Sequence record: OZ035793.1 | DNA: 45,509 nt | Strand: one strand, 5' to 3' | Origin: Veterinaerplatzvirus T145P1 | In this document: piece by piece, positions 9,289 through 40,296 of the stretch | Numbering within the stretch: position 1 is the first letter of the stretch | How the letters are laid out: every line of letters begins with the position of its first letter | Notes under the pieces: model-generated | The model's database searches: none | Seen by the model: the letters and a program-made list of their open reading frames with translations, nothing else | What the model was told of the DNA's origin: nothing | Made by a program: the position numbers and the translations under genes

Positions 9289-9293
9289 TTGCA

Positions 9294-10291: not shown

Positions 10292-10312
10292 CCCGCTTCG
10301 GCGGGTTTTCTA
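10291..10312 (+). terminator. intrinsic terminator/attenuator
   Basis: ACCCGC-ttcg-GCGGGT plus TTTT. Confidence 0.6.
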
Positions 10313-10326
10313 TTATGGAGGCTTAG

Positions 10327-13308
10327 ATGGCAACAAATGAATTAGCCGGAATCACACTAGCCGTAGATGTTTCGCAAGTAGACAGGGGAACGCAATCCCT
10401 GCAAAAGTTCAGACAGGCAAACCAGCAAGCCGCTTCCGGTATTAGTGAATTCGTCAACGCTGAGCAGGTTGCTAAAAACCAGGCGAGAGATACGGCTCGT
10501 GCACTTTCTGAGCAGCAAGCGTCACTAGCTAAATTGCAAACAGCTATCGACCCAACTGCTGCAAAGTTCCGCAAGCTGCAAGAGGCAGCGGTGGGTCTTG
10601 ATAAGGCATTCGCTGCTGGCGTAGTTCCTGACGAGGAATTTTTCCGCTTAGGTGAGGCGCTAGAAACTCAAAACGCAAAACTTGCTCGTTCACGTGCGGC
10701 GCTAACTGAAGAGGGTAGGGCGGCAGCGCAGGCTGCAAAGGATAAGGCAAAAGCAAAGGCTGAAGCGGATAGATTCATTGCATCACTTGAGCGTCAGGCT
10801 CAAGCGGCAACATTGACGCGTGAGGAGTACTTAAAGTTACAAGCGGCCCAGCTTGGCGTTAGTTCTCAGGCAGCACCCATCATTGACAGAATCGCCGACG
10901 CATCACAGAAGGCAAACACCCAGTTAATTGCTCAGAGTAAGGCTTTTCAGAAATCAGGATTAAGCGCCGGGCAATACAAGAATGCCATATCTCAACTACC
11001 AGCGCAGATTACTGATATTGGCACGTCGCTTGCTGGTGGCATTCCGATTTGGCTTATTGCAATTCAGCAAGGTGGGCAGATCAAGGATGCATTTGGCGGC
11101 ATTGGTAACACCTTTAGATTCGCACTTGCAGCCTTAAACCCATTCAATGTAGCTGTTGGTGTTTTGGGTGGGGTACTTGTAGCTCTTGGTGTTGGTGCGG
11201 CTCAGGCTGAAAGTGAATTCAGAGCATTAAACTCTGCCATTGCATTTTCCAACAACTCTACAATCGCATCAATCTCGCAGGTTAGAGAGTTGGTTAGCTC
11301 TGTTTCTGATGCAACAGGTGCCACCAGAGGGCTTGTGACTAGCATCGCAACAAGCCTTATTGAGCAAGGGAACCTTACGCTGACGCAGATTGACAAGATT
11401 ACTAAATCGACCGCAAGATGGGCGCAGTTGACAGGCAAGGATGCGAAGGAAATTACTGGTTACTATAACCAGATTGCGAGCGACCCAATACAGGGATTGG
11501 TTGATTTGGATAAGCGCTTTAACTTCCTCACTCAGGGGCAGTTGACGACAATCGAAAACCTGAGAAAGACAAAGGGAGAGGTCGAGGCCGTTACCGCCGC
11601 AATTGACATTTTCAGCAAGTCGCAGGAAGCAAACCTTAACGACATAGCAGCGCAGTTAACTCCACTTGAGTTAGCCTGGAATGACTTTAGAAAGTACATC
11701 TCTGACATTTGGGATGCAATTAGCCGCAGAACGGTTGGGGCGCTAAACCTGTTTGTTGACGTAATTGCCGGAACAATTGAGCAGATCAGGGTCTTCATTA
11801 ACCAGGGTGACGTACTGATTGGTGAATTCGTAATTAGCGCAACGCAAGCGCTGCAAAACATTCCTGGTCTTGATGGTGTTGGTGATGACGTCATAAAGAG
11901 CCAGCAGAAGATTATCGATGCAGCCAAGAAGCAAAACCTTGAGCTAGAAAAGTCTATCAAGGAGCGCGATGCCAGAATAAGAGAAGGAGAACTTGGTTAC
12001 GTTACTCGCAGAGAAAATCAGAATACCAATGAGCAGTCAGGCACGGATGAGGAGTTTGCAAAAAGGAAGAAGGCGCTTCAGGATGAACTTGATGCGATCA
12101 AGAAGAACAGGAAAGAAGAAAATGGCAGGGTTAAAGAGCAAAGAGACCTTACAATTGGTTACGAATCTGGCGTACTGGCACTTCAGGCTCAACTCAAGGT
12201 TCTTCAGGAAAATAGGGATATTGGCGCAGTAATAAGTAATGAGCGCAAGCAGTATCTTCATGATGAAGCCAAATTCAGGATTCTTGAGCAGAGGCAGCTT
12301 GATGGTTCAATCACCAAAGAGCAGTCAAGACTTCTTCTTGAGAAGGATAAAGTCCTCGAATTGGCAAGGCAGAAGGCTGAACTTGGAGATCAGATTGTTT
12401 TGCAGGAGCGAGCCAATAAGTTAGCTGAAGATAACCGCAAGAAGATTCTTCAGATTAACAACGAAGCAAAAAACATTGATTTGGGGGCTGGTCTATCTTC
12501 TCGTGAACAACAGAGAGCCAAAGAGATTCAGGCTCTTCAGTCCAATCAGGTTAATGCTGGTGGCGCAATTGATGACGTGGATTTTCAGCAGCTTCTCGAG
12601 GCAAGACGTAACTTTTATGCTCAGGAAGATGCGTTACGTGAAAACTGGCTTGCTGGTGTGAACCAATCCTTTGCTAATTGGGCTGAGAGCGCGACGGATG
12701 CATTCTCAATTGCTGGAAGTTTAACCACCACAGTATTTGAAGGCATTACTGACCAGATTACTGACCTTGTAACAACTGGTGAAACTAACTTCAGAGAGTT
12801 CACTGTTAACATCCTTAAACAGATTGCTAAGATTGCGGCTCAGCTTCTTATTGTTAAGGCTATCGAGTCTAGTTTAAGTAGCTTTGGTGGTACTGGTGGC
12901 GCGATTGGCTCTATCGCATCTGCGATTGGTGGTGGATTCGCTAACGGTGGTTATACTGGTAATGGAGGGAAATACCAACCAGCAGGAACCGTACACCGTG
13001 GTGAGTTTGTATTCACAAAAGAAGCAACTAGTCGAATCGGTGTTAAGAACCTTTACGCTCTAATGAAAGGTTACGCAAACGGTGGTGTCGTTGGTGGTCC
13101 CTCTGGCTATGCAAATGGTGGCTTGGTTTCTGGAGGCACAGATGTTAATGTTAGTGGAATTACGGTTAACGTTAATAGTGGAATTGGAAGTGACCCAGAG
13201 CAGGCCAAGGCGCTGCAAAATGGCGTTAAGGCAATTGTAGCTGAAGAGATTTCTCAGTCTTTCCAGCAGGGTGGCAGAGCTTATCAGTACCTGCGCGGAT
13301 TTAACTAA
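10327..13308 (+). CDS. tail tape measure protein
   Basis: 993 aa, long Ala/Gln/Glu-rich coiled-coil N-terminal half, Gly-rich C-terminus; position after G/GT. Confidence 0.85.
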   Translation: MATNELAGITLAVDVSQVDRGTQSLQKFRQANQQAASGISEFVNAEQVAKNQARDTARALSEQQASLAKLQTAIDPTAAKFRKLQEAAVGLDKAFAAGVVPDEEFFRLGEALETQNAKLARSRAALTEEGRAAAQAAKDKAKAKAEADRFIASLERQAQAATLTREEYLKLQAAQLGVSSQAAPIIDRIADASQKANTQLIAQSKAFQKSGLSAGQYKNAISQLPAQITDIGTSLAGGIPIWLIAIQQGGQIKDAFGGIGNTFRFALAALNPFNVAVGVLGGVLVALGVGAAQAESEFRALNSAIAFSNNSTIASISQVRELVSSVSDATGATRGLVTSIATSLIEQGNLTLTQIDKITKSTARWAQLTGKDAKEITGYYNQIASDPIQGLVDLDKRFNFLTQGQLTTIENLRKTKGEVEAVTAAIDIFSKSQEANLNDIAAQLTPLELAWNDFRKYISDIWDAISRRTVGALNLFVDVIAGTIEQIRVFINQGDVLIGEFVISATQALQNIPGLDGVGDDVIKSQQKIIDAAKKQNLELEKSIKERDARIREGELGYVTRRENQNTNEQSGTDEEFAKRKKALQDELDAIKKNRKEENGRVKEQRDLTIGYESGVLALQAQLKVLQENRDIGAVISNERKQYLHDEAKFRILEQRQLDGSITKEQSRLLLEKDKVLELARQKAELGDQIVLQERANKLAEDNRKKILQINNEAKNIDLGAGLSSREQQRAKEIQALQSNQVNAGGAIDDVDFQQLLEARRNFYAQEDALRENWLAGVNQSFANWAESATDAFSIAGSLTTTVFEGITDQITDLVTTGETNFREFTVNILKQIAKIAAQLLIVKAIESSLSSFGGTGGAIGSIASAIGGGFANGGYTGNGGKYQPAGTVHRGEFVFTKEATSRIGVKNLYALMKGYANGGVVGGPSGYANGGLVSGGTDVNVSGITVNVNSGIGSDPEQAKALQNGVKAIVAEEISQSFQQGGRAYQYLRGFN

Positions 13309-13338
13309 TTAACGGGGCTTCGGCCCCTAAGGATTTTT

Positions 13339-13689
13339 ATGGCAATAGATAATTTTACATGGTGTACACAAATCCAGAATGGTGGAGCTGCATTTTCCAA
13401 TACAAACAATGTTCGTATTGTTAGCTTTGGCAATGGTTTTGAGCAAAGAGGAACAGGGGGCTACCGCAGTAATAAGCGCAGCTACCAGATGACCTATACA
13501 AACAAGGACTGGCGTGAGGTTATGGATTTCTGCTTCAATCACATCATCACACCATTCTTCTGGAAAACACCGCAAGGTGATACTTCTATGTTTGTTATTC
13601 AGCAGGATAGCATTTCAGTTACACCAATTAGTAGCGAAGTTCAGACTGTAAACATGCAATTCGTAGAAGTTTTTAGCTCAATGCGTTAA
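13339..13689 (+). CDS. minor tail protein (lambda gpM-like)
   Basis: 116 aa, first gene of an M-L-K-I-J-like tail-tip block after the tape measure. Confidence 0.6.
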   Translation: MAIDNFTWCTQIQNGGAAFSNTNNVRIVSFGNGFEQRGTGGYRSNKRSYQMTYTNKDWREVMDFCFNHIITPFFWKTPQGDTSMFVIQQDSISVTPISSEVQTVNMQFVEVFSSMR

Positions 13690-13693
13690 ACTA

Positions 13694-13716
13694 AGCCCCT
13701 ATATGGGGCTTTTTGT
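13694..13716 (+). terminator. intrinsic terminator/attenuator
   Basis: AGCCCC-tatat-GGGGCT plus TTTT. Confidence 0.6.
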
Positions 13717-13727
13717 TGGAGAAATAT

Positions 13728-14483
13728 ATGTTAAGTCCAAAGTTTGAAAATCAGTTGCAAAGCCTTTTCCCTGGTGAGATTGTGACACTAATCCAGGTTG
13801 ACGGCACGTCCTTCGGGGGTCTCGTTTATTCGTTCCACAATGAGAACATCTCATACACTCCAGAAGAAATCATGCTGGCTCAAATGAATGGCGAGCCACT
13901 ACCAGAGAAAACCATCACATTTCGTGGTGAAGAGTACGGGCCTAGACCATTTGGAATCTCTGGCATAAATATGACTTCTGACGGAAAGGCCAATAAGGTT
14001 ACATTAACGGTATCAAACGTTGACCAGCGTATTAGTGCGTTAATCCGAACATACAACGGACTTGTTAAAGCTAAGGTTACAATCTGGATTACTACGCGCG
14101 ATAACATCAATGAGGATGGAAGCATTGCTGACGGGGACTATCGCAGATTCGTTTACTTTATTGAGCGACCGAAGCAGGTTGACTACAAGACCGCATCGTT
14201 TGAGCTAAGCAGCCCGATGGATATGGATGGTATTTATATCCCCGCAAGACTTGTTCAGTCTGTTTGCTATTGGGCTTCTAGGGGTTGGTATCGCAGCGGT
14301 AATGGATGCGACTACGCTGGCAATCGTTATTTTGACAAAGACGACAACCCGGTCAGTGATCCGTCTCTAGATTTCTGCGCCGGAACAGTTAATAGCTGTA
14401 AGATTAGATTTGGAGAGAATAACCAGCTTTCATTTGGTGGATGCGCAGCAGCAAGCCTTCAAGCTAAAGCGAATCAGAGCTAA
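13728..14483 (+). CDS. minor tail protein (lambda gpL-like)
   Basis: Start trimmed to ATG 13728 behind ggag (the upstream TTG lies inside the terminator); C-terminal Cys cluster as in gpL. Confidence 0.7.
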   Translation: MLSPKFENQLQSLFPGEIVTLIQVDGTSFGGLVYSFHNENISYTPEEIMLAQMNGEPLPEKTITFRGEEYGPRPFGISGINMTSDGKANKVTLTVSNVDQRISALIRTYNGLVKAKVTIWITTRDNINEDGSIADGDYRRFVYFIERPKQVDYKTASFELSSPMDMDGIYIPARLVQSVCYWASRGWYRSGNGCDYAGNRYFDKDDNPVSDPSLDFCAGTVNSCKIRFGENNQLSFGGCAAASLQAKANQS

Positions 14484-14492
14484 GGGGGAACA

Positions 14493-15251
14493 ATGTTAAC
14501 ACCAAAAGTTAAACTGGAAATCTTCCAGCACGCAAAGGAAGTTTACCCGCATGAGTGCTGTGGAGTTGTTACGCAGAAGGGTCGCGCTCAGAAGTATCAC
14601 AGAATCACCAATGTCAGCAAGGACCCGGAGAATGAGTTTATCCTTGATTCGAATGAGTATGCAGATGTTCTCTTTGAGTTGGCTCACAATGAATCTATTG
14701 TTTACGTAGTTCACTCTCATACGGGTGATGGCGCAACAACAAGGCCTAGCCCAGCGGATATTTGCAGCTGTAATGAATGCGAGGTTCCTTACGTTATTGT
14801 AAGCATCCCAGAGTTGGACATGAGAATCCTTGAGCCTTCAACTATGCCACTGATTGGTCGCCCGTGGGGTTTGGGTAGCTTCGATTGCTGGGGGCTGGTG
14901 ATGAATTTCCACAAGAAGTACGGCGTCAAACTGAATGACTATCGCGTTAATTACCCATGGTGGGAGAAGAAGTACAGCGAAAATATCTATGACGACAACT
15001 GGATCAAGGAAGGCTTTGAGCTGGTAAAAAATTCGGATATTCCTATTGGCTCAATGATTATGATGCAGGTGCAAAGTGAGGTGACAAACCACGCAGGAAT
15101 CTACATTGGCAACAACAGATTCATTCACCATCTTTATGGTAAAATGAGTTCCATTGATATCTACTCCGATTACTGGCGCGAAAGAACAGTGCGAATTGTT
15201 CGCCATAAGGATTTACCAGAGGATGTAAGTTATGACCCAGAAACTGATTGA
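14493..15251 (+). CDS. tail assembly protein (lambda gpK-like; JAMM/MPN + NlpC/P60)
   Basis: N-terminal PHECCG...HSHTGDG metalloprotease-like motif and C-terminal Cys...His segment (DCWG ... HAGIYIG). Confidence 0.8.
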   Translation: MLTPKVKLEIFQHAKEVYPHECCGVVTQKGRAQKYHRITNVSKDPENEFILDSNEYADVLFELAHNESIVYVVHSHTGDGATTRPSPADICSCNECEVPYVIVSIPELDMRILEPSTMPLIGRPWGLGSFDCWGLVMNFHKKYGVKLNDYRVNYPWWEKKYSENIYDDNWIKEGFELVKNSDIPIGSMIMMQVQSEVTNHAGIYIGNNRFIHHLYGKMSSIDIYSDYWRERTVRIVRHKDLPEDVSYDPETD

Positions 15252-15804
15252 TATTAAGTTAGGCCTGTCTCTAGGTAGGAGGTTTGGCAAGGTTCACCAA
15301 ATGGCAGTGAGTAGCGTGCCAGAAGCAATGCGAGCGCTTTGTTCTCAGATTCCATCCTTCAAAGAGTTCATGAATAGCCATGTAGGGCAAAACACAAGAT
15401 ATGCTATTTTTGTGGATGGTAAAAATGTGAACGAGCATCGAATTGCTGATTTTAGTGCCGTTCAGGAGATACGCATCTTGCCAATTCCACAAGGTCGTAA
15501 GTCTGGAGGGTTATTTCAGACAATACTTGGTGCCGCACTAATCGTTGTTGGTGTTGTATTCCAGCAATACTACCTTGTTGGTGCAGGTATCTCTCTTGCT
15601 GCTGGCGGCGTAGCTCAGTTGCTATCACCTCAAGCTACTGGATTGAAAGACCAGAGCAACCAGACAAGTAACAGGGCGTCATATGCATTTGGCTCGGCTG
15701 TGAACACTGTAGCTGCTGGTTATCCAGTTTGTCTTCCGTATGGATATCGAACGGTTGGCGGTTCTGTGTTTAGTGCGGGTTCATATAGTGAAGACATTGC
15801 TTAA
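15232..15804 (+). CDS. tail assembly protein (lambda gpI-like)
   Basis: Overlaps K-like gene; C-terminal hydrophobic Gly/Ala/Val-rich segment; position before J. Confidence 0.6.
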   Translation: MTQKLIDIKLGLSLGRRFGKVHQMAVSSVPEAMRALCSQIPSFKEFMNSHVGQNTRYAIFVDGKNVNEHRIADFSAVQEIRILPIPQGRKSGGLFQTILGAALIVVGVVFQQYYLVGAGISLAAGGVAQLLSPQATGLKDQSNQTSNRASYAFGSAVNTVAAGYPVCLPYGYRTVGGSVFSAGSYSEDIA

Positions 15805-15812
15805 ATATCATA

Positions 15813-15834
15813 CCCGCCTAGTGCGGGTTTTTTA
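15813..15834 (+). terminator. intrinsic terminator/attenuator between I-like and J-like genes
   Basis: CCCGC-ctagt-GCGGG plus T7. Confidence 0.65.
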
Positions 15835-15845
15835 TTTAGTGTAGA

Positions 15846-18800
15846 ATGGCACAAATGATCAAAACAAACATGAGGCTTTGTGATATGGCTGAAGATATTA
15901 AGATTTATGGTGCTAAGGGTGGTAGCCAGAAGCAGCACCAACCAGTGGAACAAGAAGACAACCTGATTTCATTAAACAAGGTCAAGGTATTACTTGCGGT
16001 TGCTGACGGCGAGGTTGACCCTAACTTCTCAATGAAAGATTTATACCTTGCTGACGTTCCGGTGCAAAACCAGGATGGTAGCTACAACTATGATGGTGTT
16101 CGCGCTGAGTTCCGTGCTGGCACGCAGTATCAGGACTATATCGCCGGGCTTGACGGTGCTAACTCAGAGATTCAGGCATCCAGAGAAATCAAGAACGATA
16201 CCCCGTACATCATTGCGGTTAACAATACTCAGCTTTCAGCAATTCGAGTTAAGCTATTTTGGCCTCGACTGGTTAAGCAAGAAAACAACGGAGACCTGAA
16301 CGGAACAACTTGCGAGTACGCAATTGACCTTTCTGTTAATGGTGGTGCTTACCAGGAATACACTCGCGGAGTTGCTAACGGCAAGACAACTACAGGTTAC
16401 GACCGAAGCATTCGCGTAAACCTTCCGGCAGAGTTTGATAGTGCGCTTGTTCGCATCCGTAAGATTACAGCTGACTCAACGAGCAGCACACTGGTTAACG
16501 GAATGCAGATTACAACCTATCAGGAAGTAATCGACGCCAAATTCCGCTACCCGCTTACGGCTCTGGTCTATGTTGAGTTTGGTTCTGACTTGTTCCCTAA
16601 CGGCATCCCGACAATCTCAATAAAGAAGCGTTGGAAGCTAATTCAGGTACCGACAAACTACGACCCGGAGACAAGGACTTACAGCGGGACATGGAATGGC
16701 TTATTCAAGATGGCATGGTCGAATAACCCGGCATGGGTTCTCTATGACCTGGTGACAAACCGACGCTATGGGCTTGACCAGCGAGAGTTGGGTGTAGAGA
16801 TTGATAAATGGGGCTTGTATGAAGCCGCGCAATTCTGTGACCAGATGGTTCCAGATGGTAAGGGTGGTTTAGAGCCGCGTTACCTTTGCGATATGGTTGT
16901 GCAAAACAAGGTTGAGGCCTACACGCTAATTCGTGATATCTGCTCAATCTTCCGTGGTCTGACTTTCTATGACGGTGAAAAGATTGGTATCGTGGTTGAT
17001 AAGCCTCGCAACCCATCTTACATCTTCACCAATGATAACGTTGTAAACGGATTGTTCAGTCGAACCTTTGCCAGTGATAAAAGCCTTTACACCACGGCAA
17101 ACGTCCAGTTTGATGATGTAGAGAACAACTATCAACAGGATGTTGAGCCGGTATTTGAATTAGAGGCAACTCGTCGTTTTGGATTTAACCCTGTAGATTT
17201 AACTGCGATTGGATGCACTCGCAGAAGTGAAGCAAACAGACGTGGCAGATGGCTCCTGAAAACAAACCTGAGAAGCGAAACTATCAGCTTCACTACTGGG
17301 TTGGAAGGTATGATTCCGATGATTGGCGAGGTAATTGCGGTCAATGACGCTGCATGGTCTAGCAACTATCAGTTAAACCTTTCCGGTCGTATTGAGTCAG
17401 TTCAGGGGTTGCAGGTTTTTACCCCTTTTAAAGTTGACGCAGCGCCTGGTGACAGAATTCTTCTGAACAAGCCAGACGGAAGTCCAGAGGCAAGAACTAT
17501 TGCCAGCGTTTCGGAGGATGGAAGAACAATCAACCTTAACACTGCTTTTAGTTTTGTAGCTCAACCTGACACTGTTTTCGCAATCGATAAGGATAATCTC
17601 GCGCTTCAACAGTATGTTGTGACCGGGATTCAAAAAGCAGATTCTGATGGCTCTGATTCATTCCAGTATACGATTACCGCAGTAGAGTATGACCCGAACA
17701 AGTATGATGAGATTGATTATGGTGTAAACATTGTTGACCGCCCAACATCAATTGTTGAGCCTGATAGATTGTCGCCACCTGAGAACTTAACAGTATCAAG
17801 CTACAGTAAGGTTGTTCAAGGGTTGTCAGTTGAGACGATGGTTATCGGATGGGATAAAGCTCCATACGCTAAAACATACAATGTTCAGTGGAGGAAAGAA
17901 AATGGCAACTGGATTAACGTACCCAGAACGGCAAGTACAGAGGTTGATATCGAAGGTATTTACGCAGGAATCTATGACGTTAGGGTTCGCAGCGTATCAG
18001 ATACTGAAAACGTGTCTGCCTGGTCTGGCATTGTAACCGTATCGCTAACTGGCAAGATTGGTCGCCCATCGGCACCTACTGTTATCACGGCATCAACAGA
18101 TGAGGTATTTGGCATCCGTGTTAAGTGGGGTTTCCCTGAGGGTTCTGGTGACACTGCTTACACTGAACTTCAGCAGGTCCCTGATAATGGTGACGGCACT
18201 TACAATCCTGATAACGCAAGTTTGCTGACGTTACTGCCTTATCCAGCCTATGAATACTGGCACACGCCAATTCAGCCGGGTAAGGTCATCTGGTATCGCG
18301 CAAGATTGATTGACAGAATCGGCAATACCTCTGATTGGTCTTATTTCGCTAGAGGTATGAGTACTGACGACGCCAACATCATCAACGATTATATCAAGGT
18401 TGATATTGAAGGCTCGGAGGGTTTTAAATACCTAGAGCAGAATGCGATTCAAAAGAACCAGGACATTCAGAATCAAGCCGAGGCAATCATCGAGAACGCG
18501 CTGGCTAATGATGGCGATGTTCGTCGCATGACTAAGGAGAACGGCAAGCGTAAGGCTGAATATGTTCAGGCTGTGAATCTCATAGCTGATGAAACTCAGG
18601 CGCGTGTAGAGGCTCTTACGCAGCTTAAAGCGCAGATTGATGATGAGGTTGTTTCATCGATTACAGAAGTTCAGACTGCATTAGCAACAGAGACAGAAGC
18701 AAGAACTACTGCGGATACGGCTCTATCAGCAAGACTTGGTGAAAACGAGGCTGCACTAAACCAGAAGCTGGACGCTTTTTCTAACGCCACATCGACTGGT

Positions 18801-19271
18801 GTACAGTATGGGATTAGTCTTGGCCTGAAATACAACGGACAGACTTATTCATCCGGCATGAGTATGGAGCTTGTTGGCACTGGTGGGAATGTTCGCAGTC
18901 AGTTCATCTTTGACGCAAACAGATTCGCAATCAGTAACGGCATTGGTTCTGGTTCCGGTCAGTGGCAACTCCCATTCGTTGTAGAGAATGGAAACGTAAT
19001 AATCCAAAGCGCAGTAATCGGCGATGGCTCAATTACTAACGCTAAGATTGGTAATATAATTTCATCAAATGATTATGTGGCAGGCTCTCAGGGATGGGCG
19101 ATACTGAAAAGTGGTGCGTCAGAGTTCAATAACACAACTGTAAGGGGCAATCTTTACGCTAACAATGGTAACTTTGCTTTTAACGGAACCAATAACACGG
19201 TTCAGATTAACAATAACGGAATCACTGTAAACTTACCGAACGGAGGAAGAGTGGTAGTTGGAGTGTGGTAA
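15846..19271 (+). CDS. central tail fiber / host specificity protein (lambda gpJ-like)
   Basis: 1141 aa; recalled similarity to lambda J in the region VPTNYDPETRTYSGTWNGLFKMAWSNNPAWVLYDL...CDQMVPDGKGGLEPRY; start may instead be ATG 15885. Confidence 0.85.
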   Translation: MAQMIKTNMRLCDMAEDIKIYGAKGGSQKQHQPVEQEDNLISLNKVKVLLAVADGEVDPNFSMKDLYLADVPVQNQDGSYNYDGVRAEFRAGTQYQDYIAGLDGANSEIQASREIKNDTPYIIAVNNTQLSAIRVKLFWPRLVKQENNGDLNGTTCEYAIDLSVNGGAYQEYTRGVANGKTTTGYDRSIRVNLPAEFDSALVRIRKITADSTSSTLVNGMQITTYQEVIDAKFRYPLTALVYVEFGSDLFPNGIPTISIKKRWKLIQVPTNYDPETRTYSGTWNGLFKMAWSNNPAWVLYDLVTNRRYGLDQRELGVEIDKWGLYEAAQFCDQMVPDGKGGLEPRYLCDMVVQNKVEAYTLIRDICSIFRGLTFYDGEKIGIVVDKPRNPSYIFTNDNVVNGLFSRTFASDKSLYTTANVQFDDVENNYQQDVEPVFELEATRRFGFNPVDLTAIGCTRRSEANRRGRWLLKTNLRSETISFTTGLEGMIPMIGEVIAVNDAAWSSNYQLNLSGRIESVQGLQVFTPFKVDAAPGDRILLNKPDGSPEARTIASVSEDGRTINLNTAFSFVAQPDTVFAIDKDNLALQQYVVTGIQKADSDGSDSFQYTITAVEYDPNKYDEIDYGVNIVDRPTSIVEPDRLSPPENLTVSSYSKVVQGLSVETMVIGWDKAPYAKTYNVQWRKENGNWINVPRTASTEVDIEGIYAGIYDVRVRSVSDTENVSAWSGIVTVSLTGKIGRPSAPTVITASTDEVFGIRVKWGFPEGSGDTAYTELQQVPDNGDGTYNPDNASLLTLLPYPAYEYWHTPIQPGKVIWYRARLIDRIGNTSDWSYFARGMSTDDANIINDYIKVDIEGSEGFKYLEQNAIQKNQDIQNQAEAIIENALANDGDVRRMTKENGKRKAEYVQAVNLIADETQARVEALTQLKAQIDDEVVSSITEVQTALATETEARTTADTALSARLGENEAALNQKLDAFSNATSTGVQYGISLGLKYNGQTYSSGMSMELVGTGGNVRSQFIFDANRFAISNGIGSGSGQWQLPFVVENGNVIIQSAVIGDGSITNAKIGNIISSNDYVAGSQGWAILKSGASEFNNTTVRGNLYANNGNFAFNGTNNTVQINNNGITVNLPNGGRVVVGVW

Positions 19272-19278
19272 TAAATAA

Positions 19279-19304
19279 AGCCCCTTAATTGGGGCTTTTC
19301 TTTT
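19279..19304. terminator. bidirectional intrinsic terminator
   Basis: AGCCCC-ttaatt-GGGGCT flanked by A-rich (5') and T-rich (3') tracts, between convergent genes. Confidence 0.7.
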
Positions 19305-20274
19305 AGTAGAAGTTTGGGATAAATGGAAGTGCCATTGATATGTTCGTGTCGAAAGGAAACTGAGCGCCTGTCTGAGTTGAGTAGTTACCTATTACAGATC
19401 CAGGAACAGCCCTAACGGAGCCTCCAGACATGCAAACACCCTTGTATCGTAAGTTGTTATACCCTCCGGTAACTCTAGTTGTAGCGCCGCACCTAAGCAG
19501 CGGGAAGAAACCACCATTTATTGACTGATATCCATTGCTTATTTGTATAAATCCACCAAGAACGAATGGGCGGCGAACACTTGAAAAAACAATCTGACCA
19601 GAACTATTTGACATTGTGAGTCCAGGCCCGGCCGGTGGTGGTTCATTCCTGAATATCACCAGCTGAACATGGGTACTTGCCGCAACATCATCTGTACCTC
19701 CGTAGGTTATATCCCTACACCATATTGTTGATCCATCTGATTCAAGTGATACGTTTGGATTATCCCACTTGCCGAATGGTATTCCGCTAACTGGTAGCGA
19801 TGCTGCACCGTTAACCTGTATGCCCCCAACCCAGGCCGCAGACATTAGCCGCGAGTTGCTTGATATAGCAAGGAAATCAGTTGAGTTCTCAACAAGTATT
19901 CCAGGACTTGATGAGGATGAAGCCGGTAGTATCTCAAAGCAATTACCAGCAAAGTCAATTATTCGACCATTAGCACCATTGAAGTTGCTGATAGTTATCC
20001 TGCCAGTTCCGTCATTTACCTTTTGAAACCCGTTCATGTAATAAACTTCGGGTATAACATCGTAAGCGTCAACGTGGACTGCCTTCGTTGGTAGGCAGAA
20101 AGCCGTAGAGCCAGGAAACATTGTCAATCCAAAATCCCACGAGATTGCCGGGGTTGAAAGTCCATTGGTATTTATTGATCCAGTCACAGCAGGTGCCCTT
20201 AATCCTGCCGTGATTTCCATCGCTGGTCTTCCGTCATTGAGGTCAATCAATATACCCTGCGGCATTATTTCCAC
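19303..20274 (-). CDS. hypothetical protein, possibly tail-fiber/receptor-associated
   Basis: 323 aa Gly/Ser/Asn-rich; convergent with J, co-oriented and overlapping with upstream lipoprotein gene. Confidence 0.5.
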
Positions 20275-20510: not shown

Positions 20511-20690
20511 TTTGTATTCCTTATTAAGTTGTTTCGTTTTGATGTAGTAATAATACAACCGTCAGTGCGGAATGTCTTTAGCTATTCGTGCTATTGCATA
20601 CACGTAACCGATGTAACTCGATGTATACAATCTCATCCGCGGAAAATGATATACGCACTGTTACGCAAATTTACGCATTGGTTACATTAA

Positions 20691-20750
20691 AATATCTATA
20701 TATATCAACCTTTTACTCTTATTATTATTATATATATATTACTGTGTATA
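20691..20750. repeat. AT-rich long direct repeat copy A with (TTA)4 tract
   Basis: AATATCTATATATATCAACCTTTTACTCTTATTATTATTA...ACTGTGTATA, near-identical to 39953-40021. Confidence 0.85.
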
Positions 20751-21055
20751 TCATGTAACTACTTCTATAGAGTGTTCCGGTTATAATTTTAATATCATGT
20801 GGATTTATACAGTATTGCGCTGCAGCTATACCAATGCACCCTCAGCAATGAATGATATACACGATATACACGATGGTTACATTGAGCTATAGCTGGGCCG
20901 AGATGCCAAAAAACGTAACTAGTGCCAATGCCTACACGGAATTACAAGGATTCACGTGTAAACTTAAATCAACGATTGGCAAAACCAATTGGACTGGTTA
21001 CGGTGCCGAATATATAGTTAACTCATCGAAAGCAAACAACCAGAGAGATACAGAA

Positions 21056-23645: not shown

Positions 23646-24071
23646 ATGCACGTAATTACTGGTCAGATTCGACGCGCTCCATTCACTAAAGAAGGTCATA
23701 ATGCTAATGGTACCTGGAAAATGTTTGCGGTTGATTTGAGTGAGCGATACAAAGATAAAGATGGTCAGACTCAGTATAGTAACTATCGCGCAGTCTTCTT
23801 CGCGAAAGAGTCAATGTTAGATTGGTATAATGAAGCTTTTCAAGAGGGTAAAGTTGTTAGCGTTAGCGCAGAGACTCTTTCTGTTGATGTTAGAGATAAA
23901 GATGGCAAGACTTACGTTACTGTCAACATGAACAATCCTAGACTTGAGTTTAGTCAGCGCGGTGAAGGTGGCGTGCAGCAGCAACCTAGACAACAGCAAC
24001 AAGCACAACAGCAACAACAGAATCAACAGCCAAAACAGCAAAAGCAATTCGAAGATGATATTCCTTTCTAA
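23646..24071 (+). CDS. ssb: single-stranded DNA-binding protein
   Basis: Gln-rich linker and C-terminal acidic tail ending DDIPF, the SSB signature. Confidence 0.85.
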   Translation: MHVITGQIRRAPFTKEGHNANGTWKMFAVDLSERYKDKDGQTQYSNYRAVFFAKESMLDWYNEAFQEGKVVSVSAETLSVDVRDKDGKTYVTVNMNNPRLEFSQRGEGGVQQQPRQQQQAQQQQQNQQPKQQKQFEDDIPF

Positions 24072-26770: not shown

Positions 26771-27697
26771 TTAGTCTAGTAATTCGCTCGCCTTGTATAT
26801 TCGCTTTCTTATTCCTGATTTGAAGTGGTTATCATTATTTGGCATTACAACATCAAGATTGCGATCGTCAGCAACGGCGAGTAAATCAAAATCGCTGCGA
26901 GTACAAGCGATGCGTAACTTGTAGTTTCTAAGCGCGTAAGCAACCATTTCCATGTTGTAACTGGAGTGGCAAACAAGCACACAGCGGTTCCCAGTAGCAA
27001 TGTGAACGCGATAGCCATCAATGAAATTATCGACCAGATAAGCGTACTCATCATCCTTAAAGGAACCAATAACAGAAACAGACTGGCGAGAATAATCTTT
27101 TGCAGCATAACTAACATCTCCCTCCTCATTGATAAACATTACATTGCACATCTCTTCTGATATGCCGTCACTATAAGCCATAAAGCACGGAACTGCGTGG
27201 ATTAATTCACCTGATTTCGTCCTGCCAACATCAAAACCGAACTCGCTATAGATACCCTCGTATGTACTGAGAGGAGTTGATTCTACTCTTTCCGTCCTTT
27301 CCATTATCTCTAAGCATCTTTCGTGATCAATCTGAGCGCCCATTTTGTATGGTGATGTTCTTGAAGCTCTTTTGTTTGCTTTTGATATAACCTCTACTGG
27401 AACGAGATTCAGCCAATCACCAAGCGTATCTATTGTTTCACTATAACTCATTCCAGAACACTTCATTACCCAACCAACACCAGAATCATTTCCACACTGG
27501 TTGCATATTGCTGCGCCATTTCCCTTTTCTTGACCTAACTCATCAGTGAAGCGAAACCTATCCTTGCCAAAGCAGTAAGGGCACGGACCATGTTTCTTGC
27601 TGAGATTCTCCTTTGTCCATCCAAGATGCGATGAGTAGAACTCACTCCACATCCCTTTCATCTTGGCTATCACTTCGTTCTTATCATGGTGACTCAT
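26771..27697 (-). CDS. DNA primase (zinc-binding, putative)
   Basis: Start trimmed to ATG 27697 (RBS ggagg); CPYC...CNQC zinc-ribbon near N-terminus; followed by intrinsic terminator. Confidence 0.6.
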   Translation of the reverse strand: MSHHDKNEVIAKMKGMWSEFYSSHLGWTKENLSKKHGPCPYCFGKDRFRFTDELGQEKGNGAAICNQCGNDSGVGWVMKCSGMSYSETIDTLGDWLNLVPVEVISKANKRASRTSPYKMGAQIDHERCLEIMERTERVESTPLSTYEGIYSEFGFDVGRTKSGELIHAVPCFMAYSDGISEEMCNVMFINEEGDVSYAAKDYSRQSVSVIGSFKDDEYAYLVDNFIDGYRVHIATGNRCVLVCHSSYNMEMVAYALRNYKLRIACTRSDFDLLAVADDRNLDVVMPNNDNHFKSGIRKRIYKASELLD

Positions 27698-27752
27698 AAT
27701 TACCTCCATAAACAATAAAGGCACTATACATAATGCAAAGTGCCATTGTTTA

Positions 27753-28232
27753 TCAAATCGTGCTGTTTTGCTCTTTCTTCTTTTGGTTCTCTAATTTTAT
27801 CTTGCGCCATGAACGACACTCTGGCTTAGTGGCTAATTCAGCCTCAGTGACGACTCGCAGCATATGGCGCTTTTTGCACCGAAGTGTCAGCGGTTTCCCG
27901 TTGCCGTCGAATTGCAGGTCTGGTCGGCAGAATGTAGCGCGAAAACCTTCTCCATTTCGCTTATAGTAGTTGTGAGAAAGTTGAGCCCCACGCGCAGAAA
28001 TCATACCGCGCTTAAACCATTCTTCTACAGCCTGTGGTGTTACCTTTAACTGCTTTGCGATATTCGCCTTTGTGCCGAAGAAATCAAGAACTATCTCTAG
28101 CCGCGCGCGTAGCCCGGCTCTTACTTCATCTTTTAAAACATAGTAGCCTGAAGGTCGTTTACGTTGCTTTTTGTCTTCGGTGCGGATGGTTCCGTTATTG
28201 CCGTTAATTGTTCGCTTGTCGACTGTATTCAT
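27753..28232 (-). CDS. helix-turn-helix DNA-binding protein (candidate transcription regulator)
   Basis: Basic 159 aa protein with HTH-like segment KANIAKQLKVTPQAVEEWFKRG; first gene of the - strand operon, next to divergent promoters. Confidence 0.5.
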   Translation of the reverse strand: MNTVDKRTINGNNGTIRTEDKKQRKRPSGYYVLKDEVRAGLRARLEIVLDFFGTKANIAKQLKVTPQAVEEWFKRGMISARGAQLSHNYYKRNGEGFRATFCRPDLQFDGNGKPLTLRCKKRHMLRVVTEAELATKPECRSWRKIKLENQKKKEQNSTI

Positions 28233-28333: not shown

Positions 28334-30328
28334 ATGTTGCCTATCGAGAAGCTGGTTGCAAATTTCGATAAAGAAAGAATCAAACAGATTCAGAAAGACT
28401 ATCAGTTTGGAGAGATAACCCCTTACGAATTCCAGTGCGTGACATTTGATGCAATCGGAAAGGCTATTGGCAAGTACGAGGCACCATTTATCGCAGACCT
28501 TTCAGTATCTGCGGGTAAGACAATCATTCTTGCCATGATTGGTAAGCGCATGGAGCAGCTTGGGCTTCCCTATATGGTTCTCTCTCGCCAGTCAGAGATT
28601 ATCAGCCAGAACTCAGAAGAGCTTCGTAATTTCGGCATACGTAATAGCGTCTATTGCGCTGGCCTTAACGTCAAATCAGTTTACTACCCAACTATAGTGG
28701 CCAGTGAGGGTACGGCAGCCAACGGCTTGTTTAAGGGGCTTGGTGACTATGTTCCGGCAGTTATCGCTATAGATGAGTGTCACATGGTCGATCACATGGA
28801 TATCGTGGAGGCTGAAGAGAATGAAGAAACATTTGAGCAAATGAGCACAAAGAAAGGCGATATGGTTTTTAAGGATGGCGTAAACACAGGATTGCTTGGT
28901 ACTGGTCGTGCGCAGTACACGCTAATTATCACCGAGATGAAACGTCGTTGTCGTGAGAAGTACGGGCGTGAGCTTCGTATATTCGGTCTTACTGGCAGCC
29001 CGTATCGTAACAACGATCATATCGTCGTTAGCAACCCAAACATCCGTGGATTCTGGCGCAAAACAGTGATTCAGGTGCCAACAAATTATCTGGTTGATTT
29101 GGGCTTCGTTGTTCCTACTGTTTATGGTGAAGTTGGTGACCTGGGTTATGACCTTAGTGAGTTTGCGCCAGACGGAAGCGATGGCGTTAAAGACTTCAGC
29201 AAGAAAGAAATGGATGCAATGGCTGCAAAGATTCACGACAACCAATCAATGACCCAAAAGATAATGGGTTTTGTTGTGAAAATACTCGAGACTCGTAACG
29301 CTGCATTGGTAACATGCGCTGGCAAACTCCATTGTGATGAGGCTGCTGCGGCACTACCAGATGGATACCCTTACGCCATCATCACAGACTCTACGGGAGA
29401 GAGGAAGCGCAGGGAGATTCTGGCTGATTGCCAGACAGGTAAGTACAAAATAATATTCCAGATTGGTTGTCTTACTACGGGCGTAAACCAGCCGCTGTGG
29501 GATACTAGCGTCATACTACGCAAGATTGGCAGCCTAACGCTTATGATTCAGCTTCTTGGTAGGGGGATGCGCAAACTTAAGAGATCTCATATTGATGCTG
29601 GTTTTCATAAAGAAGATCACCTTGTGCTGGATTTTGCTGGCGCACTTGATGATATGGCTGAGCTTTACTTTGACCCAATTATTGAAGAGATTCAGGCTGA
29701 GAAGTTTAAATCCTCAAGAAAAGGTGGCGATGAGGTTCGTCAGTGTCCGCAATGTGGATATGAAAATTCCCCATTCGCTCGTCGCTGTAGCAATAAGATT
29801 GATGGCGTTAGATGCGATCACTTCTTTCAGTTCACAATTTGCGAAGACATTACCGACGCGCAAACTAAATCGGTAATTAAAAAGGGTTGTGGCGCTCGCA
29901 ATGACATAGCAGCAAAGGTTTGCAGGGAATGCGGCGAGATGCTTAAAGACCCAAATGCTAACCTGACTGGCAAAATGTATCGTCGTGGTGATTACCTTCG
30001 TGTTTATGATTTTCAAGTTGGGTTAAGTAAGAATCAGACAGGCATTGTAGTTAAGTACAATATAATGGCTCATAACGGAGAGAGATTTAACGCTTGGGAG
30101 TTCTTTAATCCAGAATCAGACCATCGAGTTTGCAGTGTGCTCTGGAAGAACTTTTGCTTAGCTCATATTGAGAATCGCACGGAAGCGGCACGAATTGGCA
30201 GGCTTAAAAATGCCAGAATGATTATGACTAACGTAGATAAGTTCCGTGCGCCAGTTCAGGTTACGCATCGCCGGAATGCAAAAGGAAAGGACGTGATAGC
30301 GTTTAAGAATTTTGGAGAATTATTATGA
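28334..30328 (+). CDS. SF2 DNA helicase with C-terminal zinc ribbons
   Basis: Walker A SAGKT, DExH-like DECH motif, C-terminal CxxC pairs. Confidence 0.8.
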   Translation: MLPIEKLVANFDKERIKQIQKDYQFGEITPYEFQCVTFDAIGKAIGKYEAPFIADLSVSAGKTIILAMIGKRMEQLGLPYMVLSRQSEIISQNSEELRNFGIRNSVYCAGLNVKSVYYPTIVASEGTAANGLFKGLGDYVPAVIAIDECHMVDHMDIVEAEENEETFEQMSTKKGDMVFKDGVNTGLLGTGRAQYTLIITEMKRRCREKYGRELRIFGLTGSPYRNNDHIVVSNPNIRGFWRKTVIQVPTNYLVDLGFVVPTVYGEVGDLGYDLSEFAPDGSDGVKDFSKKEMDAMAAKIHDNQSMTQKIMGFVVKILETRNAALVTCAGKLHCDEAAAALPDGYPYAIITDSTGERKRREILADCQTGKYKIIFQIGCLTTGVNQPLWDTSVILRKIGSLTLMIQLLGRGMRKLKRSHIDAGFHKEDHLVLDFAGALDDMAELYFDPIIEEIQAEKFKSSRKGGDEVRQCPQCGYENSPFARRCSNKIDGVRCDHFFQFTICEDITDAQTKSVIKKGCGARNDIAAKVCRECGEMLKDPNANLTGKMYRRGDYLRVYDFQVGLSKNQTGIVVKYNIMAHNGERFNAWEFFNPESDHRVCSVLWKNFCLAHIENRTEAARIGRLKNARMIMTNVDKFRAPVQVTHRRNAKGKDVIAFKNFGELL

Positions 30329-34985: not shown

Positions 34986-35350
34986 TAGTGTGCGTAGCTT
35001 TATCTGGATGTTCGGCAACTGATGCACTGACTGGATTGATTGGAAGCAAGCCGGAAGTTACAGCTCAGGCCGGGGCTGAGAACAACAAGGTTGGCGTTGG
35101 GTTAACGAATAAGGTCGATTCCAGCAGCTCCAGTGAAGCCACGGTTAAAGATTCTAAAGTTGGGTCACTTGATAGCTCAAGCGGGAAAAAGACTGCTGAC
35201 AACTCGATTAAGGCATCTACAATCACTGCCGAAAAGATTGAGATTACCAACAACGACTCATCCGCGCCTCCATGGATTGTAATGGGAGCTATGGGGTTGC
35301 TGTTTTTTGTTCCACTTACCGCAATCTTAAGACGCAAAAAAGCCTCCTAA
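34961..35350 (+). CDS. unimolecular spanin (u-spanin, T1 gp11-like architecture)
   Basis: N-terminal lipobox LSGC, Ser-rich periplasmic segment and C-terminal TMD followed by RRKK; overlaps endolysin 3' end. Confidence 0.7.
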   Translation: MFKWIAALVVCVALSGCSATDALTGLIGSKPEVTAQAGAENNKVGVGLTNKVDSSSSSEATVKDSKVGSLDSSSGKKTADNSIKASTITAEKIEITNNDSSAPPWIVMGAMGLLFFVPLTAILRRKKAS

Positions 35351-35366
35351 TGGAGGCTATATTTTT
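35336..35366. terminator. bidirectional intrinsic terminator after lysis cassette
   Basis: A5-AGCCTCC-taat-GGAGGCT-ATATTTTT; contains the spanin stop codon. Confidence 0.65.
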
Positions 35367-35700
35367 AGCTAAATAACTCGTCGTCAGTCATTGTTCCTAT
35401 ATTCATCATCTCTTTTATGTACTTGCTTTGATACCCGTTAAGCGCCTCGAAGTTAAACTCAAATGGCCTCTTCAAGCTACCATTGCTAGCAAACTCACCG
35501 CACTTACCATCAATGTATCCCATGCTAAGCATCTTCGCGCAGAACTCCTTTGAAGCCGCGCTGCAAAACTCCCTATGCGATAATCCTGCCGCCTTACTGA
35601 ATCTCTGAGAGTCCTTATGCTGGTAGATGAATCGCGCCAAATGCTGTCGCGTGAAAAAGCTGTAAGATTCGCAGAACCGGTACAAGTCAAGGATGAACAT
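35365..35700 (-). CDS. hypothetical protein
   Basis: Last gene of - strand operon, followed by bidirectional terminator. Confidence 0.5.
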   Translation of the reverse strand: MFILDLYRFCESYSFFTRQHLARFIYQHKDSQRFSKAAGLSHREFCSAASKEFCAKMLSMGYIDGKCGEFASNGSLKRPFEFNFEALNGYQSKYIKEMMNIGTMTDDELFS

Positions 35701-35702
35701 AA

Positions 35703-35789
35703 TTAACTCCTGAGCACTGCCAAAACAAATAGAAGCATCGAAATTGTTACAACAAAACCAAGTATTATCAGTAGTATCGATTCAATCAT
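35703..35789 (-). CDS. tiny hydrophobic peptide (28 aa, MIESILLIILGFVVTISMLLFVLAVLRS)
   Basis: Not in ORF track; RBS gggg, start 3 nt after ATPase stop, stop abuts next start. Confidence 0.35.
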   Translation of the reverse strand: MIESILLIILGFVVTISMLLFVLAVLRS

Positions 35790-35792: not shown

Positions 35793-37376
35793 TCACCCCA
35801 GCAATCTCGGATTAATGTAAACTTTATCACCAATCAGGCACGTATAGTTTTTCTCATCAAGCATTGGCAGTAAGTGATCTTTAATCTTCGTCATCACTCC
35901 AGCCTGAGCCTCGAACGGCTTAACCTTTCGCGCCGCTTCATACAATGAGCGAATGCCAACAACACCCTTACCGTTTTTACCCTGCTTGATCAGGATATCA
36001 ATCAGCTTATTCATCTCGGCATTGTCGCCAGCGTGACCAGCCGCGTTGGCAGATGACAAATAAGTCTTGCTAAGCTCCTGGAACATGATTACAGCTTCTT
36101 GCATGGTATCAAGCTCAATCTCTCTGGATTTCTGTGGACTCCCACCGCTAGGGTTGAACCAGTTGCGCACTGTGTGAAGAACAGCAGCAATCCTGATAGC
36201 CTGCTTATCGAATTTACCCAGCGCGCCGCGCAACATTGTGTGGGAATACTTACCGCCGTCCGCAAGGTGCGGCTCCATTTCCTGACGTGCCCGGTTTAGA
36301 TATTTCATCGCTGAGTTGCTAACCGTCAACTTTACTTCTTGCTCATTCATGATTTCGTGAACCAGGCGGAAGTAGTTAGCCTTAAGCTCACCATCAATTG
36401 GCTCGTAAGTTGAGTTGCCATTCTCATCGACGAATACACGCTCGCCAAGGAATGATTTTTCACGCACAAGTAGAAAACGTTCCGACACACCAATACCACG
36501 AGCACCAGCATTCATGATTGCGTTTATTGTCTCATCTTGCGCAATTACAGAGATGCATCCCATAGCGACGAAGCTCATGTTGTTTTCTGCGTTCGCACGC
36601 GCAATGGACACGTTACCAGCATCCCACGCCTTGAGTACGAGCTCGCTGTTCGTTTTCTTTGAGCCATCACCATAGGTCATACCTAGCAGAGAGTTCACGC
36701 TCGTTGCTTCATCAGAGATAACCGCGAAGTTGCCCTGGCGGTTGTTTATTCGCGCAAGACCTTCAGGCGTCGTATCTGATACTGGAAATACGATATCGCA
36801 CATCTTTTCCAGCTTCTCCTCTAAATCCTCTTTCTCCTCAAAGAGAGACGCCATCTCTGATGGTGACTTTTCCTGCTTCATCTCTTTGGATAATGCAGAC
36901 AGCTTTGCCATAATCTTTTTACGCTCACGCTTTCGCACTTCATTAAGCCGCTCAGTCTCAGCAATCATTGGCGCAATAGAAAGCGAGTTAATTGCTGATT
37001 TACCTGTGGATGGTGGCTGACTGGTTACTACGTATAGAGAGGTCGGTTGCTGGGTTCCGTGATACTCTACTGTAAAACGTCCCAGCATGGCGGCAGAAAT
37101 ACACCCCAGAAAGTGCATATAAGCTGAAGACTCTGGAAATTGAACAGAACGGGCAATATTGGCTGACAGCTTACCAACAACATCAATGTCATTACCGAGT
37201 GAGATTACGGGATACTTGTCATTAGCCGCATCAATCTCAACTGGCGCTTTCCAGAATGATTGAGACTGACGATATCCATTGGCATTAATAGCGACGCGCA
37301 GGGGTGGGAGGTTGTCTGCGGCAGCAATTGCCATAACCTGTTCAACAGATAGCTTATCTTCGTTGAAATCAAACAT
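35793..37376 (-). CDS. P-loop NTPase of unknown role (possibly replication-associated)
   Basis: Walker A QPPSTGKS and Walker B-like FAVISDEA; own promoter element 37407-37450. Confidence 0.5.
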   Translation of the reverse strand: MFDFNEDKLSVEQVMAIAAADNLPPLRVAINANGYRQSQSFWKAPVEIDAANDKYPVISLGNDIDVVGKLSANIARSVQFPESSAYMHFLGCISAAMLGRFTVEYHGTQQPTSLYVVTSQPPSTGKSAINSLSIAPMIAETERLNEVRKRERKKIMAKLSALSKEMKQEKSPSEMASLFEEKEDLEEKLEKMCDIVFPVSDTTPEGLARINNRQGNFAVISDEATSVNSLLGMTYGDGSKKTNSELVLKAWDAGNVSIARANAENNMSFVAMGCISVIAQDETINAIMNAGARGIGVSERFLLVREKSFLGERVFVDENGNSTYEPIDGELKANYFRLVHEIMNEQEVKLTVSNSAMKYLNRARQEMEPHLADGGKYSHTMLRGALGKFDKQAIRIAAVLHTVRNWFNPSGGSPQKSREIELDTMQEAVIMFQELSKTYLSSANAAGHAGDNAEMNKLIDILIKQGKNGKGVVGIRSLYEAARKVKPFEAQAGVMTKIKDHLLPMLDEKNYTCLIGDKVYINPRLLG

Positions 37377-37406
37377 TACTTCTCTCCGTGTTGTTTCTGA
37401 GCGGCC

Positions 37407-37450
37407 ATTATAACAACGACCGCTTATAAAGCATTATCAATTTGTGCTAT
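37407..37450 (-). promoter_or_regulatory. composite promoter element (- strand, ATPase gene)
   Basis: - strand ATAGCACAAATTGATAA, 22 bp, TATAAT with -10 inside hairpin AGCGG...CCGCT. Confidence 0.5.
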
Positions 37451-37566
37451 TAATTGTTCTTAATCCACTTTAGACACATCCACAATCCAGCCCCATAGAA
37501 TGCAATCTTGAGAACTTCAGCTAAGACAAGGATAATAAAGTATCCACCACCAAGTAAATCAATCAT
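37450..37566 (-). CDS. small membrane peptide (38 aa)
   Basis: Not in ORF track; ATGA overlap with upstream stop; hydrophobic core; stop abuts the promoter palindrome. Confidence 0.35.
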   Translation of the reverse strand: MIDLLGGGYFIILVLAEVLKIAFYGAGLWMCLKWIKNN

Positions 37567-39668: not shown

Positions 39669-39682
39669 CGTTAGATTTATGT

Positions 39683-39777
39683 ATTGTTGCAGATATTGCA
39701 ATGATTCACTTGATTATTGCACATACAGCAATATTGCTTCCGATGCAATGATGTTTTTGATTGTTGCGAAAAGTGAA
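39683..39777. repeat. nested direct repeats around a central dyad (candidate iteron/operator array)
   Basis: ATTGTTGC at both ends, TGCAATGAT twice inside, central perfect palindrome GCAATATTGC. Confidence 0.6.
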
Positions 39778-39952
39778 ATTAAGTGGTGAGTGAGTGAATG
39801 AAAGATGGATGGACTACCATACAAGTTGATTTTTACCAATCTATGGGAGCCTCACGGATATACGCGTATCCTCCGTATACTCAGTGTCGTCACAAAAGTT
39901 AGTGACCACTAACCTACGTTTTTACGCGATATATACACACGATATACAATAT

Positions 39953-40021
39953 AATATCTATATATATCAACCTTTTACTTTATTATTATTATTATTATTA
40001 TATATATGTATACTGTGTATA
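39953..40021. repeat. AT-rich long direct repeat copy B with (TTA)7 tract
   Basis: Same sequence as 20691-20750 except the microsatellite length and 3 substitutions. Confidence 0.85.
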
Positions 40022-40227
40022 CCGGTAATTGGTGAGATTATTGATATGTTCCGCGCAGATATTCTGACACCTGTCAGAAATGGATGGCATTGTAGGAATA
40101 AAAGGCACATATATAGGGAATGGCTTCAAAAATCTGTACACATCGGATACGGCACATTTACAACCAGCAATGGAGGGGCCTCTGGAGGTAAAAAGCGTAT
40201 CCATGATAAAATAGACGAAAATATACA

Positions 40228-40256
40228 TTGACCGACACGTAAATAGATGGCAATAT
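40228..40256 (+). promoter_or_regulatory. sigma70-like promoter TTGACC-17-CAATAT
   Basis: Canonical spacing; leader CACTGAAACGAAG; upstream of gene 40297. Confidence 0.5.
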
Positions 40257-40296
40257 AGCAGTCACTGAAACGAAGTAAAACAAACGAGGTATCAAC

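Follow-up and report, generated by a model that had tools for sequence, protein, structure and literature searches.

What is the function of a 527-residue P-loop ATPase encoded on the minus strand of Veterinaerplatzvirus T145P1, and does it take part in replication of the phage genome? The gene is found in sequence record OZ035793.1 (45,509 nucleotides; this whole stretch is referred to below as the window). The original prediction, made from the sequence alone, had described its product as a P-loop NTPase of unassigned function with a composite promoter of its own, perhaps a replication initiator or an accessory ATPase. The protein is a canonical member of the DUF3987 family, which is already known and annotated, and in our estimate it is probably a ring helicase for replication, which is coupled to host DNA polymerase III (Pol III) and to the primase of the phage.

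35793-37376, minus strand: helicase gene, 527 amino acids, DUF3987-family AAA+; open reading frame (ORF) with ATG start; orthologue of T1 ST9/gp09 and Rtp rtp67

Family membership and motifs of the protein

The genus Veterinaerplatzvirus belongs to the Drexlerviridae, the T1-like phages, and a 2.5-kb query centred on the gene was 100% identical to Veterinaerplatzvirus T145P1 in record OZ035786; with Rtp, SU57, MSK and further Braunvirinae identities were 87-93%. The local gene order is the same as in Rtp and T1. Genes for an exonuclease, a holin, an endolysin and a spanin on the plus strand converge on a leftward array ending in the 527-residue gene, which is the penultimate long gene of this leftward operon, and a gene for about 110 residues. 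The reading frame as originally called was confirmed: its ATG is preceded by a Shine-Dalgarno sequence, GGAGAG, at 37382-37387, and the N-terminus of the product aligns with those of all homologues in an alignment of 25 sequences with identities down to 35%, which was also used for assessing conservation.

Residues 81-430 matched positions 3-349 of the 364 positions of the Pfam profile DUF3987 (PF13148; E = 5.6e-42, 144.7 bits against a gathering cutoff of 27), and the whole protein matched PHROG 2373, "DNA helicase" (E = 5e-259); RefSeq uses the same label. The designation "unassigned function" is therefore outdated, since relatives are annotated as "DNA helicase", while the P-loop NTPase call was correct. 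The suspected link to replication was likewise correct, and the family search led to DUF3987, not to a clearly non-replicative family. Identities were 57% to T1 ST9 and about 98% to Rtp rtp67. By tblastn, homologues were found in 924 phage records, comprising essentially the whole family and a few more distant siphoviruses, under the labels "DNA helicase", "putative helicase", "DUF3987" or "hypothetical". When 1.84 billion cluster representatives were searched exhaustively with HMMER, 2704 relatives were obtained at E ≤ 1e-3, of which 161 had E ≤ 1e-30. NCBIfam contained no family for the protein. PHROG 7327 ("unknown function") matched the winged-helix region only (residues 438-526, positions 35793-36065; E = 1.6e-54). 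An assignment to defence systems by PADLOC was rejected, its sole match being JetC (E = 0.0096, 11.6 bits), which was driven by coiled coil and had no stretch passing the threshold alone.

The following parts of the gene were delineated, from the N-terminus to the C-terminus of the product:

37197-37376, minus strand: lineage-specific helical N-terminal domain, residues 1-60; three short helices in the AlphaFold2 model, W42 invariant
36087-37136, minus strand: DUF3987/AAA+ motor domain, residues 81-430, from the Pfam match
36996-37019, minus strand: Walker A motif (P-loop) QPPSTGKS, residues 120-127, from the alignment
36804-36995, minus strand: antiparallel helical hairpin (coiled coil) of about 65 residues, residues 128-191; helices 126-168 and 172-191 in the model
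36705-36728, minus strand: Walker B motif FAVISDEA, residues 217-224; strand 217-221 (strand 3), then D222 and E223
36567-36614, minus strand: beta-hairpin before strand 4, residues 255-270; strands 255-258 and 267-270 in the model, R260 invariant
36474-36485, minus strand: SERF motif, residues 298-301, with putative arginine finger R300; E299 and R300 invariant, directly before strand 301-305
36204-36239, minus strand: lid-domain motif TMLRGALGKFDK, residues 380-391, with putative sensor 2 (R383); helices 380-387 and 389-405
35814-36026, minus strand: C-terminal winged-helix domain, residues 451-521; canonical winged helix following a helical linker

The motor is the most conserved part, and the N-terminus, the coiled coil and the winged helix are the most variable ones. 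Residues 1-60, with a mean identity of 41%, belong to the least conserved segments; long homologues have primase-related domains in this place, and residues 1-60 may be a partner-binding module. In the AlphaFold2 model a hairpin at residues 101-111 is followed by strand 1 and the P-loop (residues 115-127). Q120, P121, P122, S123, G125 and K126 are invariant in the 25 sequences, as is E223, and D222 is replaced by Ala in 4 of the 25; the two Walker motifs lie where the original prediction had placed them. The Ala variants (ISAEA; sequences P0096, P0099, P0116 and P0119) keep the catalytic Glu and are unusual for an active AAA+ ATPase. The coiled-coil hairpin extends the P-loop helix, lies inside the Pfam match and has a mean identity of 48%; by charge counts its first helix is basic and its second acidic. 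A short uninterrupted helix (residues 204-214) precedes the Walker B strand.

The strands of the beta-hairpin 255-270 sit between helix 245-251 and strand 273-279 (strand 4), which is followed by Q280-D281-E282. Judged by the order of secondary structure elements, and not by residue-level superposition, this hairpin would occupy the pre-sensor-1 position. Similarly, SERF may be equivalent, by position and not by residue alignment, to the "SRF" motif before strand 5 of MCM proteins. In the lid domain L382, R383, G384, G387, K388, D390 and K391 are invariant, which yields a motif L-R-G-x-x-G-K-x-D-K (residues 382-391), and R383 is a candidate for sensor 2. The charge of the winged helix is modestly positive (13 K+R vs 9 D+E).

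In Shigella phage 2019SD1 the gene matched in five pieces, and in Klebsiella phage KL residues 431-526 only were matched, which suggests that some relatives have a split or disrupted gene. Insertion of a mobile endonuclease was possibly the cause; in T1 an HNH gene abuts ST9.

Fold comparison and class of helicase

Comparison of folds with the AlphaFold2 model identified an AAA+ motor with an MCM-type fold. This relationship was revealed by fold comparison only. Pfam MCM (PF00493) was not matched at E ≤ 1, and searches of PDB chain sequences by phmmer or hmmsearch returned no MCM chain; using the single protein or the profile of 25 sequences as query, the best match was 6zsv (E = 0.098/0.95 over about 35 residues), besides coiled-coil design proteins. 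The N-terminal oligonucleotide-binding (OB) fold with zinc motif, which MCM proteins possess, is absent, residues 1-97 being all helical in the model and devoid of a Cys/His cluster; the helix-2 insert beta-hairpin of MCMs is also missing from the model. Because of these differences, and of the additional coiled coil, the protein should be regarded as MCM-like, but not as an MCM.

On the ranking of folds, a DnaB-like helicase (superfamily 4, SF4; RecA fold), an SF3 helicase and a member of the DnaA/Orc/Cdc6/DnaC clade of initiators and loaders were rejected. Since the ATPase was grouped with MCM motors and not with DnaA/Orc/Cdc6 initiators, it is likely the main helicase of the fork, and the suggestion of an accessory ATPase was not borne out. 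That it might be an AAA+ ATPase other than a helicase, e.g., a loader or remodeller which recruits host DnaB, or a factor for host takeover, appears barely credible to us.

Phage DUF3987 proteins were assigned to SF6 by Kazlauskas et al. (2016, PMC4889955), who reported an HHsearch value of 98% to MCM for a mycobacteriophage member; they noted a winged helix-turn-helix at the C-terminus and an association with primases, and concluded that these proteins are replicative helicases (see also PMC5862659). The member from phage N4, dns, is essential for replication (PMC4889955). A PriCT-DUF3987 protein from Seonamhaeicola, AgaPH, was described in 2025 (PMC11724360) as oligomeric and binding its primase-polymerase; in the presence of ATP or dATP it can unwind forked as well as 5'-tailed DNA, being thus a 5'-3' helicase, and loses activity upon mutation of Walker A or Walker B. 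No information bearing on the T145P1 helicase was found in the literature on T1 genetics, dependence on host dna genes, phage escape mutants or immune sensing.

The DUF3987 helicases T1 ST9/gp09, Rtp rtp67, AgaPH and N4 dns resemble the T145P1 protein in the variant of Walker A, in a Walker B of the type hhhhDE and in the C-terminal winged helix. In contrast to AgaPH and the helicase part of N4 dns, the T145P1 protein has neither a fused primase nor a PriCT domain, and carries instead the lineage-specific helical N-terminus of about 60 residues. Archaeal MCM, Mcm2-7 and MCM8/9 (SF6) move 3'-5', whereas the reported polarity of DUF3987 is the opposite, 5'-3'; they also differ from the T145P1 protein by its coiled-coil hairpin of about 65 residues after the P-loop helix. 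The MCM-like proteins SCCmec Cch (PDB 5dgk) and SaPI5 Rep (PDB 7ola) belong to another Pfam family, DUF927, and are more distant than the MCMs. They are self-loading, with documented origin binding. With respect to the proposed role, T7 gp4 and DnaB (SF4) would be counterparts, i.e., ring helicases, here possibly of 5'-3' polarity and coupled to a zinc-ribbon primase of the T7/P4 type.

Presumed primase partner and replication gene set

Two further genes bear on this role:

26771-27724, minus strand: stand-alone DNA primase of the T7 gp4/P4-alpha type, presumed partner of the helicase (Zn_Ribbon_Prim, E = 7e-12)
28334-30328, plus strand: SF2 helicase, followed by a VRR-NUC gene

Both had been noted in the original prediction as separate genes, and both were found again. 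The primase matched only the N-terminal half of PHROG 510, "DNA primase" (positions 6-318 of 667; E = 1e-96); thus, in other phages this type of primase is part of a longer protein, probably a primase-helicase fusion. In the window its gene is not adjacent to that of the helicase, but about 8 kb away.

When 26 long homologues (666-974 amino acids) were scanned for fused domains, seven had recognisable N-terminal domains, and all seven of these were related to priming: Prim-Pol (two), PriCT_2 (two), a BT4734-like archaeo-eukaryotic primase, a DnaG zinc ribbon and the N-terminal primase-binding domain of DnaB (one each). In Klebsiella phage KpV2811 (38% identity) the order of genes is helicase, small ORF, primase, DEAD helicase, an ORF of VRR-NUC size, exonuclease VIII and Erf; in Aeromonas phage Avpd1 (35% identity) the primase is the next substantial gene after the helicase. 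The T145P1 primase is homologous to that of KpV2811 (32% identity, E = 8e-45); thus, a pair of helicase and primase which is contiguous elsewhere is separated in T1-like genomes.

These data also bear on the alternative that the protein is a motor for recombination, repair or fork restart, similar to MCM8/9, RuvB or ComM, which drives branch migration or recombination-dependent formation of concatemers while replication is left to host DnaB. We regard this as improbable. In the sample scanned, fusions were to primase domains or to the primase-binding N-domain of DnaB, and never to recombination domains; the primase adjoins the helicase gene in distant phages; AgaPH binds its primase-polymerase, and the N4 member is required for replication. 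The pair of SF2 helicase and VRR-NUC is, moreover, the more usual module for fork processing.

Every ORF of more than 300 amino acids in the window could be accounted for. They code for a membrane protein, for terminase, portal, protease, capsid, tape measure and tail J proteins and for the tail fibre, and also for the primase, the SF2 helicase and the DUF3987 helicase, besides an Mre11-like exonuclease and an exonuclease VIII-like nuclease. Among them is no DNA polymerase, no initiator of the DnaA or lambda O type and no helicase loader; the missing polymerase was also pointed out in a re-annotation of TLS and T1 (PMC11447400). Since the phage has no polymerase gene, host Pol III must be borrowed. 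A phage ring helicase together with a primase would be the minimal set which renders progression of the fork independent of host DnaB and DnaG.

A replicative function is thus proposed on the basis of family membership, the Walker A and B motifs, the MCM-like fold with winged helix, fusion to or adjacency of primases in relatives, and the gene set lacking polymerase, initiator and loader. The helicase would form a ring, probably a hexamer, with ATP at the subunit interfaces, to which one protomer would contribute K126/S127 and D222/E223, and its neighbour R300 (SERF) and possibly R383. Single-stranded DNA would be pulled through the channel by the hairpin 255-270 with R260, which would form its lining. 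In front of Pol III the phage genome would be unwound by this ring, and the separately encoded primase would prime the lagging strand. Polarity is probably 5'-3', judging from AgaPH, which is the only member of DUF3987 to have been assayed. Adaptor surfaces for loading and for contacts with partners may be provided by the helical domain at the N-terminus, by the coiled-coil insertion and by the winged helix; candidate partners are the primase, DNA and the product of the adjacent downstream gene.

Upstream block, intergenic repeats and small genes

Around the helicase gene and in two distant intergenic regions the following features were found:

37377-37451, minus strand: conserved upstream block with TGTTATAAT, an imperfect hairpin around TGTTATAAT, and GGAGAG; from the alignment
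35365-35700, minus strand: gene for a winged-helix protein of 111 amino acids, homologue of T1 ST10, co-oriented with and downstream of the helicase gene
35341-35358, both strands: bidirectional hairpin terminator, GC-rich, from a terminator scan
27753-28232: Cro-like regulator, PHROG 2856
20688-20760 and 39945-40030: two copies of an AT-rich element of about 80 nt
39683-39779: imperfect palindromes TTGCA-N5/6-TGCAA

The composite promoter of the original prediction was retained in part. An extended -10 element, TGTTATAAT, is located at 37407-37415 (minus strand), about 30 nt 5' of the helicase ATG, in a block of about 75 nt (37377-37451) which is near-invariant across four Braunvirinae (alignment with Rtp, JulesPiccard and EC3a), and which is kept although the upstream genes differ in two of these three relatives. 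An acceptable -35 element was not found at 16-18 nt from the extended -10; a sigma-70 scan did not report the latter, and the motif TGNTATAAT was not enriched in the window (4 found vs 2.2 expected). A pairing of TTGATA with TATAAT was rejected, the spacing of 22 nt being too long, and thus only the reading as extended -10 was kept. The hairpin around the -10 element was not significant (RNA fold z = -1.77; no U-tract). The block is absent 5' of the T1 orthologue ST9, because there the start of ST9 overlaps with a gene for an HNH endonuclease. The helicase gene may be transcribed from its own promoter, of the extended -10 type, but since it lies inside a continuous leftward array, transcription by read-through is equally possible. 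At the other end, the terminator at 35341-35358 concludes both the leftward helicase operon (minus strand) and the rightward lysis genes with that for the spanin (plus strand); the annotations of EC3a and T1 include equivalent terminators.

The 111-residue protein consists of a winged helix and a C-terminal tail with an invariant DDELF; its family is restricted to the Drexlerviridae. As a partner of the helicase it may bind DNA or serve as an adaptor. The product of the small gene following the helicase of KpV2811, gp03, was rejected as a homologue, since only a match of 11 residues, D(D/N)ELFS, was obtained (E = 0.022). The helicase gene is also flanked by two ORFs for small hydrophobic proteins on the minus strand, both with plausible Shine-Dalgarno sequences, one of 38 residues (MIDLLGGGYFIILVLAEVLKIAFYGAGLWMCLKWIKNN, 37450-37566) and one of 28 residues (MIESILLIILGFVVTISMLLFVLAVLRS, 35703-35789). 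The C-terminus of the former, WMCLKWIKNN, is conserved in the equivalent, unannotated stretch of Rtp.

The AT-rich element is present in two divergent intergenic regions and is composed of AATATCTATATATATCAACCTTTTACT, (TTA)n, TATATATAT and TACTGTGTATA; an origin, a DNA-unwinding element or a promoter acting in both directions are conceivable functions. By blastn (E ≤ 1e-3) it showed no similarity to segments 1-20000 and 33000-48836 of T1. The notion that T1 has conserved counterparts of the intergenic repeat regions, or that these regions correspond to the T1 genome ends, was dropped, as blastn detected no similarity to the two segments; nor is the DUF7174 gene at 40297 a homologue of T1 ST77. 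Three to four palindromes, 30-47 nt apart, are located 5' of leftward early genes; they look like operators for a dimeric helix-turn-helix protein, e.g., the Cro-like regulator.

Could the helicase itself recognise an origin in these regions, by its winged helix, then melt it and load itself? SF3 helicases, SaPI Rep and SCCmec Cch act in this manner, i.e., they recognise the origin, melt it and self-load. Such a function would extend the proposed role as replicative helicase rather than exclude it, and candidate origins would be the repeat-rich, AT-rich, divergent intergenic regions at about 20560-20851 and about 39669-40296. A winged helix is present, and no other initiator was seen among the ORFs of more than 300 amino acids. 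However, the C-terminal winged helix of MCMs is not an origin reader, and the positive charge of that in T145P1 is small. The palindromes would better suit the Cro-like regulator, and the 111-residue protein is at least as good a candidate for reading DNA. The intergenic regions are without detectable nucleotide similarity to the T1 segments searched. Loading could also be dependent on recombination, which is plausible since T1-like phages possess Erf, an exonuclease VIII-like nuclease and a single-stranded DNA-binding protein, the last being encoded at 23646-24071 in the window. On balance, self-loading at an origin seems rather unlikely to us. A more elaborate version would be an origin-specific, self-loading engine, in which helicase and 111-residue partner read the duplicated AT-rich element and the DDELF tail, acidic and hydrophobic in character, connects the MCM-like ring to the replisome of host Pol III. 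We consider this a long shot; if true, a motor of archaeal/eukaryotic type would drive a bacterial replisome, with 5'-3' polarity.

The helicase gene is a core gene of the Drexlerviridae and already carries the labels DUF3987 or DNA helicase; what interest is left attaches to experiments with this MCM-like protein in T1-like phages. These are classical and abundant coliphages without a polymerase of their own, and the presumed motor of their replication fork would be an MCM-like AAA+ protein, not a DnaB-like one. Tractable questions concern the loading of the ring, its coupling to host Pol III and to a primase of the T7/P4 type, and its direction of movement, i.e., whether this is truly 5'-3'. 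The adjacent winged-helix protein with its DDELF tail provides a concrete candidate for a partner of the helicase.
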